From Escherichia coli (GTDB taxonomy: Bacteria > Pseudomonadota > Gammaproteobacteria > Enterobacterales > Enterobacteriaceae), in the NCBI RefSeq assembly GCF_003334355.1, contig NZ_QOWP01000014.1: 64,000 nt of DNA. The stretch is one strand, 5' to 3'. This document shows, one piece after another, positions 13,726 to 20,234 of the stretch; position 1 is the first letter of the stretch; the number at the start of each line of letters is the position of its first letter. Under the pieces are notes generated by a model that worked only from the letters and a program-made list of their open reading frames with translations, did no database searches and had not been told where the DNA came from. Made by a program: the position numbers and the translations under genes.

Positions 13726-16323
13726 TTAAACCGCAGTCTGGAAAATCACCCCATCGGCTTTCTCGGTGTACTGAGAAAGCTGGTTGAAGTTCAGATAACG
13801 GTAAGTATCAACGGCTGTTTTATCTACCTGCGCCACGTAGGTCTGGTACTCTTCCGGCGTCGGCAGTTTGCCAATCAGCGCCGCAACAGCCGCCAGTTCC
13901 GCAGAAGCCAGGAAGACATTCGCGCCAGTACCCAGACGGTTCGGGAAGTTACGGGTAGAGGTGGAAACCACCGTTGCACCGTCCGCCACACGCGCCTGGT
14001 TACCCATACACAGGGAACAGCCAGGGATCTCGATACGCGCACCACTCTTACCGAAGACGCTGTAGTAGCCTTCTTCGGTCAACTGTGCGGCGTCCATACG
14101 GGTTGGCGGTGCCACCCACAGGCGGGTCGGCAACTGACCTTTATGCGCATCCAGCAGTTTACCCGCAGCACGGAAGTGACCGATGTTGGTCATGCAGGAA
14201 CCGATAAACACTTCGTCGATCTTCTCACCCTGTACCGCAGACAGCGGACGCGCGTCATCCGGGTCGTTCGGAGCACACAGGATTGGCTCTTTAATATCCG
14301 CCAGATCGATGTCGATCACTGCCGCGTATTCCGCATCTGCATCGGCTTCCAGCAGCTCAGGATTCGCCAGCCATTTTTCCATGCCCTGAATACGACGTTC
14401 CAGGGTACGACGATCGCCGTAACCTTCCGCGATCATCCACTTCAGCAGGACGATGTTAGAGTTAAGGTATTCGATGATCGGTTCTTTGTTCAGCTTGATA
14501 GTACAACCAGCGGCAGAACGCTCAGCGGACGCATCGGTAAGCTCAAAGGCCTGCTCAACTTTCAGATCCGGCAGACCTTCAATTTCCAGAATGCGGCCAG
14601 AGAAGATGTTTTTCTTGCCTTTCTTCTCAACGGTCAGCAGACCTTGTTTGATGGCATACAGCGGAATGGCGTGTACCAGATCGCGCAGGGTGATGCCCGG
14701 CTGCATTTTGCCTTTGAAGCGCACCAGAACGGATTCCGGCATATCCAGCGGCATTACGCCTGTTGCGGCTGCAAATGCCACCAGACCAGAACCCGCCGGG
14801 AAAGAGATACCGATCGGGAAACGGGTATGGGAGTCACCTCCGGTACCGACGGTATCCGGCAGCAGCATACGGTTCAGCCAGGAGTGGATTACGCCGTCAC
14901 CCGGACGCAGCGACACACCGCCACGGTTCATAATGAAGTCCGGCAGCGTGTGGTGCGTGTTCACGTCAACCGGCTTCGGATACGCCGCGGTGTGGCAGAA
15001 AGACTGCATCACCAGGTCAGCCGAGAAGCCCAGGCACGCCAGGTCTTTCAGTTCATCACGGGTCATCGGGCCTGTGGTGTCCTGAGAGCCTACAGAAGTC
15101 ATTTTCGGTTCGCAGTACGCGCCCGGACGAATGCCTTTCACGCCACAGGCACGGCCTACCATTTTTTGCGCCAGCGAGAAGCCGCGATCGCTCTCAGCGA
15201 CATCTTTCGCCTGACGGAACACATCACTGTGCGGCAGACCAAGTGCTTCACGCGCTTTGGTGGTCAGGCCACGCCCAATAATCAGCGGAATACGGCCGCC
15301 AGCACGCACTTCATCAATCAGCACGTCGGTTTTCAGTTCGAAGGTCGCCAGCAGTTCGCCGGTTTCGTGGTTACGCACTTCACCTTTGTACGGGTAAACG
15401 TCAATTACGTCGCCCATGTTCAGGTTAGAGACGTCGACTTCGATTGGCAGTGCACCTGCGTCTTCCATTGTGTTAAAGAAGATTGGTGCAATTTTACCGC
15501 CGAGACACAAACCACCGCCGCGTTTGTTCGGCACATGTGGAATATCATCACCCATAAACCACAGTACGGAGTTCGTGGCGGATTTACGCGATGAACCCGT
15601 ACCCACAACGTCACCGACGTACGCCAGCGGGAAACCTTTCTGTTGCAGAGCTTCGATTTGCTTGATCGGACCAACAACACCTGGCTGGTCTGGCTCGATG
15701 CCTTCACGGGCGTTTTTCAGCATCGCCAGCGCGTGCAGTGGGATATCCGGGCGTGACCACGCATCCGGTGCCGGAGAGAGGTCATCGGTGTTGGTTTCGC
15801 CAGTGACTTTGAAGACGGTAACGGTCAGTTTTTCAGCCAGCGCCGGGCGATTCAGGAACCATTCGGCATCCGCCCAGGACTGCATTACCTGCTTCGCATA
15901 TTCGTTGCCTGCTTTCGCTTTCTCTTCTACGTCATAGAAGTTATCGAACATCAGCAGTGTGTGAGAAAGTGCTTTGGCAGCGATCGGTGCCAGTTTGGCA
16001 TCATCCAGCGCGTCGATCAGCGGATGAATGTTGTAACCACCCTGCATGGTGCCCAGCAGTTCGATGGCTTTTTCCGGAGTCAGCAGAGGGGATTTGGCTT
16101 CGCCTTTAGCGATAGCAGCCAGGAAGCCTGCTTTGACATAGGCGGCTTCATCGACGCCTGGGGGAACACGGTTGGTTAACAGATCTAACAGGAATTCTTC
16201 TTCGCCCGCGGGCGGGTTTTTCAGCAGCTCTACAAGTGCGGCCATTTGGTTTGCATCCAGGGGTTTGGGCGCAATCCCCTCAGCGGCACGCTCAGCTACG
16301 TGCTTACGGTATTCTTCTAGCAC
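13726..16323 (-). CDS. acnB: aconitate hydratase B (bifunctional aconitase / 2-methylisocitrate dehydratase)
   Basis: ORF-track 916 aa trimmed to GTG at 16321-16323 giving (M)[15 protein letters not shown] (865 aa), matching AcnB. Confidence 0.95.
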
Positions 16324-16677
16324 GACGGTTCTCCTCGCTCTCATTGTCATAGTGCGGCAGGCGATTCTCTTCACGCTCCTGTGAGACAGCAGTTTGTAGG
16401 GTAAATGCCCAGTACCGCAACGGGCAGAATAGCAGGATTTTGACGAGGTGTTAATCTGTTTACAAAAAAGCAACATAAAAAAGTGGCTGAATCGTTAAGG
16501 ATGGTCTAGAGATTGTTTCCCTCCGTAAAAACTTCGTTAATTCGCATGGTGATAATCACCTTTCTCAACGAATCCCAAGATTAGTCAAAATTTAAACTAC
16601 CGCCTCTTTATACTCAGATTTACAGCACCTGCGGGTGGCAGTTCGCCGACTATTGCGATTTCCTTGAGATCCGAATT

Positions 16678-18531
16678 ATGAAAATGACTTTGCCGTTTAA
16701 ACCCCATGTGCTGGCGCTAATTTGCAGTGCCGGGCTTTGTGCCGCCTCTGCCGGGCTATATATAAAAAGCCGCACAGTGGAAGCGCCTGTGGAACCGCAA
16801 TCGACACAACAGACTGCGCCTGACATCTCCGCAGTTACGCTTCCTGCAACGGTTTCCGTGCCTCCTGTAACACCTGCCGTCGTCAAATCCGCATTCAGCA
16901 CTGCTCAAATAGATCAATGGGTTGCACCTGTCGCGCTATACCCCGACGCCCTACTTTCGCAGGTGCTGATGGCATCAACCTATCCGACAAACGTTGCTCA
17001 AGCAGTGCAATGGTCGCACGATAATCCACTTAAACAAGGCGATGCTGCTATTCAGGCGGTATCTGACCAGCCGTGGGACGCCAGCGTTAAATCACTGGTG
17101 GCCTTTCCACAATTGATGGCATTGATGGGCGAAAACCCGCAATGGGTGCAAAACCTGGGCGATGCTTTTCTGGCGCAGCCGCAGGACGTGATGGACTCGG
17201 TACAGCGATTGCGGCAACTGGCGCAACAAACCGGCTCGCTGAAGTCATCAACCGAACAGAAAGTTATTACCACAACGAAGAAAGCTGTACCGGTAAAACA
17301 GACAGTCACGGCACCCGTCATACCATCCAATACCGTTTTAACTGCCAACCCCGTCATTACAGAGCCGGCAACAACCGTCATTTCCATTGAGCCCGCCAAT
17401 CCTGATGTGGTCTATATTCCCAACTACAACCCAACCGTGGTTTACGGGAACTGGACCAATACTGCGTACCCGCCGGTTTATCTGCCACCACCAGCCGGAG
17501 AACCGTTTGTTGACAGCTTTGTGCGCGGATTCGGCTATAGCATGGGCGTTGCTACCACGTACGCACTATTCAGCAGCATCGACTGGGACGACGACGATCA
17601 TGACCATCATCATCATGACGATGATGATTATCATCACCACGATGGCGGTCATCGTGACGGTAATGGCTGGCAACACAACGGCGACAACATCAATATCGAC
17701 GTCAACAATTTCAACCGTATCACCGGTGAGCATCTTACTGATAAGAATATGGCATGGCGGCACAATCCAAACTACCGTAATGGTGTGCCCTATCATGATC
17801 AGGATATGGCAAAGCGGTTTCATCAAACCGATGTCAACGGCGGAATGAGTGCCACGCAGCTACCTGCTCCAACACGCGACAGCCAGCGTCAGGCGGCAGC
17901 AAGTCAGTTTCAGCAACGAACACACGCCGCCCCCGTCATTACACGAGATACCCAACGTCAGGCAGCGGCACAGCGGTTTAATGAAGCTGAACACTATGGG
18001 AGCTATGACGACTTCCGCGACTTCAGCCGTCGCCAACCACTGATCCAGCAACAAAAGGACGCCGCTCGTCAGCGTTATCAGTCCGCCTCGCCTGAGCAGC
18101 GCCAGGCAGTTCGCGAGAGAATGCAGACTAACCCGCAGCTCCAGCAGCGAAGAGAGGCAGCGCGTGAGCGCATTCAGTCCGCCTCGCCTGAGCAGCGCCA
18201 GGCGGTTCGCGAGAAAATGCAGACTAACCCGCAGAACCAGCAGCGAAGAGACGCAGCGCGTGAGCGTATTCAGTCCGCATCACCAGAGCAGCGCCAGGTG
18301 TTTAAGGAAAAAGTACAGCAGCGCCCACTGAATCAACAGCAACGTGATAACGCCCGCCAGCGTGTTCAATCGGCATCACCTGAACAACGTCAGGTTTTTC
18401 GGGAAAAAGTTCAGGAGAGCCGCCCACAACGTCTAAACGACAGTAACCATACTGTCAGGCTGAATAACGAGCAACGGTCAGCAGTACGCGAACGTCTCTC
18501 TGAGCGCGGAGCAAGGCGACTGGAAAGGTAA
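16678..18531 (+). CDS. yacH: DUF3300-type uncharacterised secreted protein with His/Asp-rich tract and C-terminal tandem repeats
   Basis: ORF-track 617 aa; hydrophobic N-terminal signal-like segment; recognised as E. coli YacH; repeats visible in DNA and protein. Confidence 0.85.
   Translation: MKMTLPFKPHVLALICSAGLCAASAGLYIKSRTVEAPVEPQSTQQTAPDISAVTLPATVSVPPVTPAVVKSAFSTAQIDQWVAPVALYPDALLSQVLMASTYPTNVAQAVQWSHDNPLKQGDAAIQAVSDQPWDASVKSLVAFPQLMALMGENPQWVQNLGDAFLAQPQDVMDSVQRLRQLAQQTGSLKSSTEQKVITTTKKAVPVKQTVTAPVIPSNTVLTANPVITEPATTVISIEPANPDVVYIPNYNPTVVYGNWTNTAYPPVYLPPPAGEPFVDSFVRGFGYSMGVATTYALFSSIDWDDDDHDHHHHDDDDYHHHDGGHRDGNGWQHNGDNINIDVNNFNRITGEHLTDKNMAWRHNPNYRNGVPYHDQDMAKRFHQTDVNGGMSATQLPAPTRDSQRQAAASQFQQRTHAAPVITRDTQRQAAAQRFNEAEHYGSYDDFRDFSRRQPLIQQQKDAARQRYQSASPEQRQAVRERMQTNPQLQQRREAARERIQSASPEQRQAVREKMQTNPQNQQRRDAARERIQSASPEQRQVFKEKVQQRPLNQQQRDNARQRVQSASPEQRQVFREKVQESRPQRLNDSNHTVRLNNEQRSAVRERLSERGARRLER
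17587..17656 (+). other. yacH: His/Asp-rich low-complexity tract in YacH (DDDDHDHHHHDDDDYHHHDGGH)
   Basis: gac/cat codon run read directly; plausible divalent-metal binding segment. Confidence 0.8.
18058..18441 (+). repeat. yacH: Four tandem copies of a 96-bp (32-codon) repeat inside yacH
   Basis: The motif cagtccgcctcgcctgagcagcgccagg recurs at about 18079, 18175 and 18271, with a diverged copy near 18367; encodes repeated ...ARERIQSASPEQRQAVREKMQTNPQ... Confidence 0.85.
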
Positions 18532-18542
18532 ATTACAGACGT

Positions 18543-18573
18543 AAAAAAAGCGGCGTGGTTAGCCGCTTTTTTA
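18543..18573. terminator. Bidirectional terminator between convergent yacH and lpd
   Basis: aaaaaaagcggc-gtggtta-gccgctttttt: GC stem flanked by A-run and T-run, so functional in both orientations. Confidence 0.75.
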
Positions 18574-18601
18574 ATTGCCGGATGTTCCGGCAAACGAAAA
18601 A

Positions 18602-20026
18602 TTACTTCTTCTTCGCTTTCGGGTTCGGCAGGTCGGTAATGCTACCTTCGAACACTTCTGCCGCCAGGCCCACAGACTCGTGCAGAGTCGGGTGCGCGTG
18701 GATGGTCAGTGCGATGTCTTCAGCATCACAACCCATTTCGATTGCCAGACCGATTTCACCCAGCAGCTCACCGCCGTTAGTACCGACAATCGCACCACCG
18801 ATCACACGGTGAGATTCTTTGTCGAAAATCAGCTTGGTCATACCGTCTGCGCAGTCGGAAGCGATAGCACGGCCAGAAGCAGCCCACGGGAAGGTGGCGG
18901 TCTCAAAGCTGATGCCTTTCTCTTTCGCTTCTTTCTCAGTCAGACCTACCCATGCAACTTCTGGTTCGGTATAGGCGATGGACGGGATAACTTTCGGATC
19001 GAAGTAATGTTTTTTACCGGCGATAACTTCAGCGGCAACGTGACCTTCGTGAACACCTTTATGTGCCAGCATTGGCTGACCGACGATATCGCCGATAGCA
19101 AAGATGTGCGGTACGTTGGTACGCAGTTGTTTGTCAACGCGGATGAAACCACGGTCGTCAACTTCCACGCCAGCTTTGCCTGCGTCGAGGTTTTTACCGT
19201 TCGGCACACGACCAATCGCTACCAGCACGGCGTCGTAACGCTGCGGTTCAGCGGGTGCTTTTTTGCCTTCCATCGTCACATAAATGCCGTCTTCTTTCGC
19301 TTCAACGGCGGTAACTTTGGTTTCCAGCATCAGGTTGAATTTCTTGCTGATACGCTTGGTGAAGACTTTAACGATGTCTTTGTCAGCTGCCGGGATAACC
19401 TGGTCGAACATTTCAACCACGTCAATCTGTGAACCCAGCGCGTGGTAAACGGTGCCCATTTCCAGACCGATGATACCGCCACCCATTACCAGCAGGCGTT
19501 CTGGTACTTCTTTCAGTTCCAGCGCGTCAGTGGAGTCCCAGATACGCGGATCTTCATGCGGAATAAACGGCAGTTGAATCGGGCGAGAACCCGCTGCAAT
19601 GATCGCGTTGTCGAAGTTGATCACGGTTTTACCGTTCTCACCTTCAACTTCCAGGGTGTTAGCCCCGGTAAATTTACCCAGACCGTTGACCACTTTGACT
19701 TTGCGGCCTTTCGCCATACCAGCCAGACCACCGGTCAGCTGATTGATCACTTTCTCTTTCCAGGTACGAATCTTGTCGATATCGGTTTTCGGTTCGCCAA
19801 AGACGATACCGTGTTCAGCCAGCGCTTTGGCTTCTTCGATAACTTTTGCTACGTGCAGCAGTGCTTTAGAAGGGATACAGCCGACGTTCAGGCAAACACC
19901 GCCAAGGGTGTTGTAACGTTCTACGATTACGGTTTCCAGACCTAAATCAGCGCAACGGAAGGCAGCGGAGTAACCTGCGGGGCCTGCCCCAAGTACCACG
20001 ACCTGAGTTTTGATTTCAGTACTCAT
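18602..20026 (-). CDS. lpd: dihydrolipoyl dehydrogenase (E3 of PDH/OGDH/GCV complexes)
   Basis: ORF-track 485 aa trimmed to MSTEIKTQVVVLGAGPAGYSAAF (474 aa); FAD motif and redox-active CLNVGC. Confidence 0.97.
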   Translation of the reverse strand: MSTEIKTQVVVLGAGPAGYSAAFRCADLGLETVIVERYNTLGGVCLNVGCIPSKALLHVAKVIEEAKALAEHGIVFGEPKTDIDKIRTWKEKVINQLTGGLAGMAKGRKVKVVNGLGKFTGANTLEVEGENGKTVINFDNAIIAAGSRPIQLPFIPHEDPRIWDSTDALELKEVPERLLVMGGGIIGLEMGTVYHALGSQIDVVEMFDQVIPAADKDIVKVFTKRISKKFNLMLETKVTAVEAKEDGIYVTMEGKKAPAEPQRYDAVLVAIGRVPNGKNLDAGKAGVEVDDRGFIRVDKQLRTNVPHIFAIGDIVGQPMLAHKGVHEGHVAAEVIAGKKHYFDPKVIPSIAYTEPEVAWVGLTEKEAKEKGISFETATFPWAASGRAIASDCADGMTKLIFDKESHRVIGGAIVGTNGGELLGEIGLAIEMGCDAEDIALTIHAHPTLHESVGLAAEVFEGSITDLPNPKAKKK

Positions 20027-20234
20027 CATGACCTCTATATATTTATCTCCGGCGGTCATACCCGTCGTCTTTCAGGCCGCAGCGGCGTTAGCTTCACGCC
20101 CTCACCCCAGTCACTTACTTATGTAAGCTCCTGGGGATTCTGGCGCTTGCTACCTTGCTGCACCCAGAAATCCATAGGGTATGTGAAGTAATACCCTAAC
20201 CACCACCGGGTCGTTCTATCCGTCGGTATTTTAC

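Follow-up and report, generated by a model that had tools for sequence, protein, structure and literature searches.

Among the described systems that resemble the one considered here are the stress proteins CpxP, Spy, and ZraP, of which ZraP joins LTXXQ-type helices with metal binding and has an activity that zinc makes metal-dependent, and ZnuA, with its His-rich loop. Closer by family are the DUF3300 and DUF2950 proteins, which have been noted in rhizobia as co-localized, secreted, and nodule-induced (PMC4653623). The Escherichia coli protein YacH resembles the DUF3300–DUF2950 module in its core residues, export signal, basic tail, and acnB–lpd site but differs in that Escherichia is without DUF2950, the C-terminal motif of YacH is degenerate, its His/Asp loop is long, and it carries 32-residue repeats. 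Like CpxP, Spy, and ZraP, YacH is probably exported, is reported to be Cpx-linked, is predicted to form helical hairpins, and has an (S/T)-P-E-Q-R-Q helix-start motif; unlike them, it is four times larger, has an unrelated conserved core, and contains tandem 32-residue units instead of a single cradle. With ZnuA it shares a disordered, acidic, His-rich stretch in an exported (for YacH, predicted) protein, but it lacks the solute-binding fold, and we found no literature linking yacH to metals or a metal regulon. Absent from the literature we searched were the partner-less E. coli version, the reading of the tract as an expanded His-bearing turn, and the natural length alleles; partner loss, expanded turn, and length alleles suggest concrete experiments on DUF3300 function, with a practical impact that is modest before a phenotype is in hand.

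In the window (the whole 64,000-nucleotide stretch of E. coli DNA that was analyzed), the ORF under study is E. coli yacH, which begins with ATG, encodes 617 amino acids plus a stop, and bears the RefSeq label "yacH: DUF3300 domain-containing protein." Its coordinates and those of its parts are given in Table 1. An earlier note on this DNA had described a 617-aa ORF divergent from acnB and convergent with lpd, and we found the same coordinates and strands: acnB (13726..16476, minus strand) lies upstream and divergent, and lpdA (18602..20059, minus strand) lies downstream and convergent. The yacH segment is 100% identical to that of strain PSS-12 and 97.9% identical to that of K-12. All 5,426 complete E. 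coli genomes carry this core gene, at a coverage of at least 80% in 5,369 of them, and it is already known as a gene, although one without a studied function.

Table 1. Features of the yacH locus, with positions numbered from the first letter of the window.
Feature	Position	Strand	Basis or remark
acnB–yacH divergent intergenic region (yacH promoter region)	16477..16677	.	between the two ORFs
yacH coding sequence, 617 aa + stop	16678..18531	+	dN/dS 0.07–0.19 vs other Escherichia alleles
Putative N-terminal export signal, aa 1–25: n-region with K2 and K8, hydrophobic core, ASA followed by G	16678..16752	+	hydropathy
Pro/Thr/Val-rich disordered linker, aa 26–74	16753..16899	+	pLDDT about 53
All-helical DUF3300 core, aa 75–184	16900..17229	+	pLDDT >94; dN/dS 0.01–0.06
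Second variable Thr/Val/Pro linker, aa 185–231	17230..17370	+	allele comparison
Aromatic/Pro-rich beta region and Gly-rich segment to invariant Trp303, aa 232–303	17371..17586	+	dN/dS 0.02–0.08
His/Asp tract DDDDHDHHHHDDDDYHHHDGGH, aa 304–325	17587..17652	+	translation; disordered in both AF2 models
Conserved segment NINIDVNNFNRI ... WRHNPNYRNGVPYHD, aa 337–374	17686..17799	+	family consensus VNINVNRxN ... WxHxPxHRxGVPYRD
Two imperfect copies TRD(S/T)QRQAAA.(Q/R)F, aa 399–434	17872..17979	+	translation
Four tandem 96-nt (32-aa) repeats, consensus PQxQQQRDAARQRIQSASPEQRQAFREKMQxN	18037..18420	+	in register
Degenerate extra half-unit NNEQRSAVRERLSE, aa 596–609	18463..18504	+	translation; conserved across Escherichia alleles
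Bidirectional intrinsic terminator common to yacH and lpdA: A7, GCGGC, loop, GCCGC, T6	18543..18572	.	folding

The sole Pfam match of YacH, PF11737 (DUF3300), covers residues 75 to 333 and model positions 2 to 227 of 227 (E = 2.9e-78, 262.9 bits). No NCBIfam model matched, and searches by sequence, family profile, and fold found no relative in the PDB, in agreement with the earlier statement that the function is unassigned; those PDB sequence and profile matches that the core, the C-terminal region, and the family profile did yield were driven by composition only. With 9,537 representatives at 50% identity (E up to 1e-3), or about 9,500 clusters, DUF3300 is among the larger protein families without a solved structure or a characterized member, and E. 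coli is the easiest organism in which to study it genetically. An alignment of 100 sequences gave as invariant A83, A86, L87, D90, W133, G161, Q176, R179, A182, and L188, and as near-invariant within the beta region Y246, P248, Y250, P252, Y256, G257, W259, P266, G290, and W303; YacH of the window keeps every one of these columns. The core motifs are APxALYPD, TYP, WD.SV, LGDAF, Q..R, Y.P.YNP..VYG.W, and the Trp before the NINVN segment. AF2 confidence was low over about a third of the protein, while residues 361 to 380 reached a pLDDT of 93 to 94. Most of the invariants are A, L, P, G, W, or Y, the only polar ones being D90, Q176, and R179, and the core contains no conserved catalytic-type residues. 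We infer from the sequence that the core may be a binding or scaffold module rather than an enzyme.

Across the family, a DUF2950 gene lies directly downstream of the DUF3300 gene in 70 of the 72 informative loci, often with a 4-nt overlap, so that the two make up a tight operon in nearly all other bacteria examined, a module found in Proteobacteria; Citrobacter, Kluyvera, and Enterobacter carry the DUF3300–DUF2950 pair at the same acnB–lpd site; no other conserved neighbors of the pair were found. For Escherichia, tblastn found no DUF2950 in the window, in eight further E. coli loci, or in E. albertii, blastn (distant sensitivity) found no match in the 5,426 E. coli genomes, and a search of the yacH–lpd spacer for a DUF2950 remnant was likewise negative. 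The Escherichia lineage has lost its DUF2950 partner, yet it keeps yacH under purifying selection. DUF2950 itself (PF11453) gave only faint NTF2-like hints as to its fold. The earlier reader had overlooked this family context. One broader proposal, which we regard as doubtful, is that DUF3300, with DUF2950, makes up an undescribed, widespread periplasmic two-protein system whose fold is without a solved relative, and of which YacH would be a partner-free form that has converted the conserved His-bearing turn into a length-tunable, cation-binding poly-His/Asp loop and has gained CpxP/Spy-like helical repeats; if true, YacH allele length would set the buffering capacity of the envelope for cations or cationic peptides.

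Export of YacH is suggested by its N terminus, where residues 11 to 29 are the only strongly hydrophobic segment (Kyte–Doolittle 2.04) and residues 9 to 24 form a helix in the AF2 model. By a crude n/h/c rule, signal-peptide-like N termini are present in 89 of 100 DUF3300 members and, by a crude rule again, in 22 of 24 DUF2950 proteins. The residues of the putative cleavage site are ASA in YacH of the window and AST in K-12. An export signal is therefore likely present, as the earlier note had also judged from the hydrophobic, signal-like N terminus, and the destination that the sequence supports is the periplasm, with YacH either cleaved or anchored in the inner membrane. The note's word "secreted" exceeds the evidence. 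Pfam, the AF2 model, and hydropathy disclosed no beta-barrel, autotransporter, lipobox, or sorting signal. Two other topologies were considered and rejected: a lipoprotein, as no lipobox fits and Cys16 is preceded by A-L-I, and a second transmembrane segment at the Gly-rich residues 283 to 302, which would leave the basic tail in the cytoplasm, because hydropathy there is below 0.9.

The Pro/Thr/Val-rich stretches reported previously are evident in the translation as two linkers. The first is longer than that of most relatives (motif offset 82 versus a median of 50) and is the least constrained part of YacH (dN/dS 0.2–0.67). The second exists in two deeply diverged allelic forms within E. coli, and its dS of about 1.0, against 0.03 to 0.12 in the adjoining segments, indicates a recombination mosaic.

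Directly after the invariant Trp303 lies the His/Asp tract, whose existence and start the earlier note had right; its end had been placed four bases too far downstream, at 17656. The 33-residue loop that follows Trp303 contains 10 His and 12 Asp and has a net charge of −10; the median loop length in DUF3300 is 3 residues, and His is enriched 9-fold at this position across the family. The tract is an expansion of this 3-residue, His-enriched turn found across DUF3300. It was present in all Enterobacterales orthologues examined, the loop from tract to NIN motif being roughly 15 to 45 residues long, and its dN/dS was 0.03 to 0.16 in the three comparisons with estimable dS. Because of the family-wide His enrichment at the loop and the purifying selection on the tract, binding of divalent metal is plausible; the tract could also be a tolerated low-complexity insertion, conserved through GAT/CAT mutational bias and not through function. 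In the PDB, the tract matched only the His-rich regions of ZnuA and CbiX, at E values of 3 to 7, which are composition-driven and not significant.

Our best explanation of the protein as a whole, which we favor tentatively and somewhat short of an even chance, is that YacH is a periplasm-facing DUF3300 accessory factor in envelope cation/stress homeostasis. YacH would be exported through Sec by its N-terminal signal and would continue in a flexible Pro/Thr/Val stalk; its conserved part, the helical domain plus the aromatic/Pro-rich beta region, would act as the binding or scaffold module. The disordered His/Asp loop, at a site where much of the DUF3300 family has a His, may chelate divalent metal cations or titrate with pH, while the basic Q/R-rich arm of helical hairpins would contact anionic envelope components, and loop and arm together would provide the accessory role. 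The most probable function of YacH would be that of a non-enzymatic envelope protein that binds cations.

An accessory role of this kind fits the published responses of the gene, which the earlier reader had overlooked. CpxR is reported to regulate yacH, and a yacH deletion mutant survived protamine better (PMC9600279); yacH expression is lower in a rob mutant (PMC7537768), its promoter is induced by ampicillin (PMC8865558), and a cathelicidin peptide induces the gene (PMC6737244). A single study underlies the protamine phenotype, and the greater resistance of the deletion has several possible explanations. Literature searches under b0117 and STM0157 returned nothing further. The spacer between acnB and yacH holds a sigma-28 holoenzyme SELEX peak (PMC5493296) and a single CpxR-like box, GTAAA-N6-GTTAA, at 16525–16540; at least one such match arose in 39 of 100 shuffles, so the box by itself is not above chance as evidence.

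The four 96-bp repeat units that had been placed at 18058–18441 are the array of Table 1 read in another phase. The copies are 66 to 83% identical to copy one, TRF scoring only the two most alike units (18078–18298, 92% match), and they are far beyond chance, being in register, frame-keeping, and conserved across Escherichia. In the AF2 model, the 32-residue units are helical hairpins (pLDDT 70–90), and the two imperfect copies upstream of them are helices at residues 400 to 414 and 423 to 437; the region of these two copies bears a 45-aa duplication in the 662-aa allele P0002. Residues 461 to 617 have a net charge of +16, and a tail of that charge inside the periplasm is unusual. The 32-residue repeats are specific to Escherichia, other enterobacterial orthologues carrying (I/T)TPEQRQQ repeats, and the family's C-terminal motif N.F.G...RG..S is degenerate or lost in Escherichia YacH.

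These repeats raise the alternative that YacH is a ZraP/CpxP/Spy-like stress protein, its SPEQRQ hairpins acting as an ATP-independent chaperone or signaling modulator to which the tract would lend metal dependence. The reported CpxR regulation (PMC9600279), the predicted helical hairpins, and the (I/T)TPEQRQQ repeats of the other orthologues would all be in keeping with it, and in hhalign the profile of the 32-aa unit aligned to the LTXXQ motif of CpxP, SLTEHQRQQMRDLMQQ (pairwise P 0.0038), and to that of Spy, ILTPEQKKQF (P 0.025). The hhalign probabilities were 8.7% for CpxP, 1.9% for Spy, and 0.1% for ZraP; Pfam gave no LTXXQ (PF07813) match to YacH at E up to 10, no PDB sequence matched, and no sequence, profile, or fold comparison was significant. 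The likeness is confined to the level of the motif, and we therefore rejected membership in the CpxP/Spy/ZraP family and regard the alternative as a whole as unlikely.

Repeat and tract lengths both vary among E. coli strains, as the earlier note had predicted for repeat copy number. In evenly spaced samples of the 5,426 genomes, about half had four repeats and most others three, the three-copy allele being an exact 96-nt deletion between units; a five-copy allele, P0001, also exists. Tract length differed in about one-sixth of the genomes so sampled, by −39, −6, +6, or +24 nt, with slippage at GAT/CAT/GAC repeats. The length changes are due to replication slippage in the tract and to unequal recombination in the repeats. 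All sequenced E. coli tract and repeat indels were in frame (multiples of 3), and the one sampled E. coli genome annotated as frameshifted had a 1-nt deletion outside both. We accordingly rejected a phase-variable simple-sequence contingency locus. In one Salmonella isolate, the orthologue is cut short by the loss of 8 nt from the tract (PMC10048834).

Polymorphism of this sort could mean that YacH is a variable protein exposed to the surface, to phage, or to immunity, with its length and linker variants kept by diversifying selection. The 3-, 4-, and 5-repeat alleles and several tract lengths do segregate in E. coli, the two diverged linker alleles and the mosaic dS point to recombination, the whole locus is at least 99% identical to the window allele in only 4 of the 5,426 genomes, and some papers label YacH "extracellular" or "outer membrane." Those labels are predictions, however, as is surface exposure itself, and YacH lacks the surface-targeting features sought above as well as any on/off tract of the frameshift type. 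Units that are only 66 to 83% identical imply that recombination between repeats is slow, which also counts against this reading. Moreover, nearly all estimable segments, linkers included, have a dN/dS well under 1, the exceptions being only comparisons with a single substitution and a dS of zero; in the repeats dN/dS is 0.10 to 0.16, except against K-12, where there are only three substitutions. Diversifying selection at the surface is, in our estimation, improbable.

We give similarly little credence to the proposal that the His/Asp loop is a pH switch and not a metal site, in which titration of His near pH 6 would open or close a contact between loop and arm. A loop of −10 and an arm of +16 do occur in one chain, His is enriched at the turn across DUF3300, and the loop is expanded in the enteric lineage, whose members pass through steep pH gradients. 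The proposal is entirely inferential, though; the CpxR study assayed acid stress and reported no acid phenotype for the yacH deletion (PMC9600279), and AF2 secondary structure and pLDDT show a disordered loop with no sign of contact with the arm.

That Escherichia yacH is a functionless remnant left by DUF2950 loss and slowly decaying through indels, as the lost partner, the lost or degenerate C-terminal motif, a weak RBS, the one frameshifted genome, and growth of deletion mutants at least equal to wild type might be taken to mean, is scarcely credible. The selection data already contradict it (dN/dS 0.01–0.06 in the core and about 0.1–0.2 overall, at divergences up to dS >0.8), and it is further opposed by the presence of the gene in every genome and by tract and repeat indels that all keep the frame. 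The gene is under purifying selection, not decaying, and its natural variants, with 3, 4, or 5 repeats and tracts of several lengths, can be used for assigning a function to YacH, for which the accessory role in envelope homeostasis is our preferred reading.

Downstream, yacH and lpdA are separated by a 70-nt spacer that holds their common terminator, with a folding energy of −18.4 kcal/mol (z −2.9) that was equaled in none of 200 shuffles. It is absent from the listing of a consensus terminator scan, and the yacH flanks gave no Rfam match at the gathering threshold. In B2 strains the yacH–lpd spacer is lengthened by a REP/BIME insertion, and in one strain it contains IS621.

The open reading frame that the earlier note had placed between acnB and lpdA proved to be real, and what was observed of YacH there is confirmed: the His/Asp tract and the tandem repeats are both present, although the tract end was four bases off and the repeats lie in another phase (TRF scoring was restricted to the two most alike 96-nt units). 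The yacH segment was matched in 5,426 of 5,426 complete Escherichia coli genomes (megablast), with the annotation 'yacH: DUF3300 domain-containing protein'; the window segment is identical to that of strain PSS-12 and shares 97.9% identity with K-12. The tract-containing segment had no match in 9 of the 5,426 genomes, which could be partial yacH deletions, and the few yacH matches in plasmid-labelled records of this set (3-7 places) could be chromosomal fragments. The spacer equivalent to window 18532-18601 varies: it measures 241 nt rather than 70 nt in the B2-type strains N66 and AHB29 (L005:2337-2577 and L006:2361-2601), owing to an insertion with REP/BIME-like palindromes GCCCGATGCGCAAGCTTATCGGGCCTACA and GTAGGTCGGATAAGGCGTTTACGCCGCATCCGGCA, and in the wastewater isolate WW2 (L008:3911-4891) it holds an IS110-like IS621 transposase gene.

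Features of the yacH locus and of the YacH protein, in window nucleotides and YacH residues
Feature	Position (nt)	Residues (aa)	Strand	Remark
acnB	13726..16476		-	upstream of yacH, divergent
yacH ORF	16678..18531		+	617 aa
His/Asp tract DDDDHDHHHHDDDDYHHHDGGH	17587-17652	304-325	+	translation
Four in-register 96-nt repeats	18037-18420		+	copies 66-83% identical to copy 1
Hairpin with flanking A and T runs	18543-18572			bidirectional terminator common to yacH and lpdA
lpdA	18602..20059		-	downstream of yacH, convergent
N-terminal helix				AlphaFold2 model
Disordered Pro/Thr/Val stalk		25-73		AlphaFold2 model
All-helical domain		75-184		AlphaFold2 model, very confident (pLDDT >94)
Aromatic/Pro-rich region containing beta		194-300		AlphaFold2 model
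Disordered His/Asp loop				AlphaFold2 model
Confident segment		361-380		AlphaFold2 model
Helical hairpins over repeats		453-547		AlphaFold2 model

The sole Pfam domain of YacH is DUF3300 (PF11737, aa 75-333, E 2.9e-78), and NCBIfam holds no model for the protein. Searched exhaustively with HMMER, 1.84 billion cluster representatives yielded 9,537 relatives at E <=1e-3 (6,585 at E <=1e-10), and DUF3300 is therefore a very large family. The gene and the family are already catalogued; our analysis adds the loss of a partner, the origin of the tract, and a census of alleles. Export, previously suggested from the N terminus, held up as a prediction: aa 11-29 form the sole hydrophobic segment, and signal-peptide-like N termini are shared by nearly all full-length DUF3300 members (89 of 100 under a crude n/h/c rule). 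Because the putative cleavage site reads ASA|G in the window allele, AST in K-12, and other small-x-small triplets in other enterics, signal cleavage is plausible, the alternative being an uncleaved anchor. AlphaFold2 modeling from a 100-sequence alignment gave a mean pLDDT of 72.9, and a domain-only model reached a pTM of 0.75. Invariant positions in the family hold A, L, P, G, W, or Y with few exceptions; D90, Q176, and R179 are the only polar ones, and no set of His, Cys, Glu, or Lys is conserved. Such a pattern points to binding or scaffolding and away from catalysis.

The family context, absent from the earlier note, revealed a partner. Scanning DUF3300 neighborhoods with one genome per species yielded 80 loci, 72 with sufficient downstream DNA, and in 70 of these 72 a DUF2950 gene lies 3' of DUF3300 on the same strand, typically with a 4-nt overlap or a 2-23 nt gap; the PF11453 assignment was confirmed in 24 of 24 tested. 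Two metagenomic look-ups showed the same order, earlier work on rhizobia had already remarked on the pairing (PMC4653623), and the pair has no further conserved neighbors. Genomes of soil Betaproteobacteria (Variovorax, Cupriavidus, Caballeronia, Achromobacter, and Paraburkholderia) each have two or three distinct operons of the pair (among loci L030-L094, e.g., L037/L038, L043/L046/L055, L068/L075, and L078/L080), which indicates repeated duplication of the module in this group. The site that yacH occupies in E. coli, between acnB and lpd, is exactly where the pair lies in Citrobacter, Kluyvera, Pseudocitrobacter, Phytobacter, Enterobacter, and 'Escherichia sp. ESNIH1'. At this site, tblastn found no DUF2950 gene or remnant in E. 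coli or E. albertii, and distant-mode blastn with the Citrobacter gene, whose reach is only ~65-70% identity, found no match in the 5,426 E. coli genomes, so that a strongly diverged copy might still lie elsewhere. The C terminus of most DUF3300 members carries the motif N.F.G ... RG..S ... RR, which is degenerate in E. albertii and almost absent from E. coli; this would be expected had the motif served the lost partner, a tentative reading drawn from one loss event. The E. albertii yacH-lpdA spacer (L016:7798-8543) is ~750 nt long where other genera hold DUF2950; it contains no DUF2950 remnant and, on the minus strand, an apparent small ORF with a signal-peptide-like start. A metagenomic, enterobacterial-like YacH homologue (P0127, L099:1019-2410, 463 aa) also has no DUF2950 downstream and may represent an independent loss in another lineage; it has no His/Asp tract of >=10 residues and carries a different tandem repeat, TQRQAAMTQLQQ.TNAPAPAAGQ, in two copies.

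The tract occupies a loop between the invariant Trp303 and a conserved NINVN, with a median of 3 residues across the 100-sequence alignment. This loop is 14% His, compared with 1.5% in the protein remainder, and at least one His occurs in 45 of 100 members. In all Enterobacterales orthologues examined, the turn has grown into a His/Asp loop, ~15-45 residues long, that keeps its composition but not its sequence. This enrichment and kept composition give the strongest support, of an indirect kind, for a putative functional His site, either metal-binding or pH-titrating; a literature search found no paper connecting yacH with metals, and the only PDB matches to the tract, His-rich loops of ZnuA and CbiX, had non-significant E-values. 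The Q/R-rich C-terminal tail is general in Enterobacteriaceae and its repeats are lineage-specific, with units of 17-18 residues in Pseudocitrobacter, Cedecea, Kluyvera, and Enterobacter and of 32 residues in Escherichia, the latter being two half-units of the 17-18-residue type. Net charge is +16 for the tail and -10 for the tract region.

The predicted copy-number variation was borne out, since neither element is invariant in length across the sampled E. coli genomes. Among eight alleles that we fetched and aligned, three have 3 repeats rather than 4, one tract is 13 residues shorter, one is 2 and another 8 residues longer, and one allele is annotated as frameshifted, having lost 1 nt from its first linker and none from either tract. 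In the protein database, one allele of 648 aa carries 5 repeats, and others contain 45-aa and 17-aa duplications. We then sampled genomes evenly across the entire hit ranking (n=60 for each region). The repeat region had the window length in 32 of 60 and was 96-98 nt shorter in 20; the remaining 8 alignments were broken, 6 of them in the pattern expected for B2-type alleles, which were 3-repeat when sequenced. Tract length was unchanged in ~50 of 60; one of the others was shorter by 6 nt and two by 39 nt, five, ST131-like strains among them, were longer by 6 nt, and Nissle 1917 was longer by 24 nt. These changes are slippage products at the DNA level: +6 duplicates CATGAC, +24 duplicates a 24-nt unit, and -39 falls between CATC microhomologies. 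In the 3-repeat allele, precisely 96 nt are deleted between neighboring units, and in a Salmonella isolate an 8-nt GATCATCA deletion in the tract truncates the protein (PMC10048834).

Published data on yacH all point to the envelope without defining a function. The gene is reported to be CpxR-regulated, its mRNA drops with protamine and cecropin A, and its deletion improves protamine survival (PMC9600279). A rob mutant under butanol showed yacH expression reduced by 4 log2 units (PMC7537768), ampicillin induces the promoter (PMC8865558), and a cathelicidin peptide mildly induces yacH in UTI89 (PMC6737244); deletion raised recombinant GFP yield (PMC7376861), and sigma-28 SELEX gave a peak in the spacer between yacH and acnB (PMC5493296). 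The anatomy of YacH is secure, and the earlier interpretation is partly supported, with export and copy-number variation holding and metal binding remaining putative. We propose that YacH is a DUF3300 envelope protein, exported and non-enzymatic and orphaned from the DUF3300-DUF2950 module. Its expanded His/Asp loop would probably bind cations, and its basic helical arm would probably touch anionic components of the envelope; the functional part of this proposal is tentative and falls somewhat short of an even chance. A ZraP-like mode of action is a minority hypothesis. The YacH 'SASPEQRQ' motif resembles the LTXXQ motif of CpxP, Spy, and ZraP, and in hhalign the repeat-unit profile singled out precisely the LTXXQ motifs of CpxP (8.7% probability) and Spy (1.9%) over 16 residues. 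Nothing aligned with ZraP, Pfam gave no LTXXQ match even at E 10, and neither phmmer nor the family profile matched CpxP, Spy, or ZraP in the PDB; we rejected LTXXQ membership and retain a motif-level likeness only.

That yacH is a decaying remnant was ruled out by low dN/dS. Nei-Gojobori comparisons of the window allele with six other Escherichia alleles gave 0.07-0.19 for the whole gene, 0.01-0.06 for the helical core, 0.02-0.08 for the aromatic/Pro-rich region (0.15 against K-12), and 0.03-0.16 for the tract in the three comparisons where dS was estimable. The repeats gave 0.10-0.16, with a value of 0.58 against K-12 resting on three substitutions only, and the two linkers 0.2-0.67. Judged by these low ratios, yacH is maintained by selection. 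Within E. coli, dS rises to ~1.0 in the second linker and is 0.34-0.37 for the segment after it (together window 17230-17586, aa 185-303), compared with 0.03-0.13 in the parts of yacH that flank this stretch, and the linker occurs in two clearly distinct allele forms. This uneven dS, together with the two linker forms, indicates that yacH is probably a recombination mosaic of two seemingly ancient allele classes.
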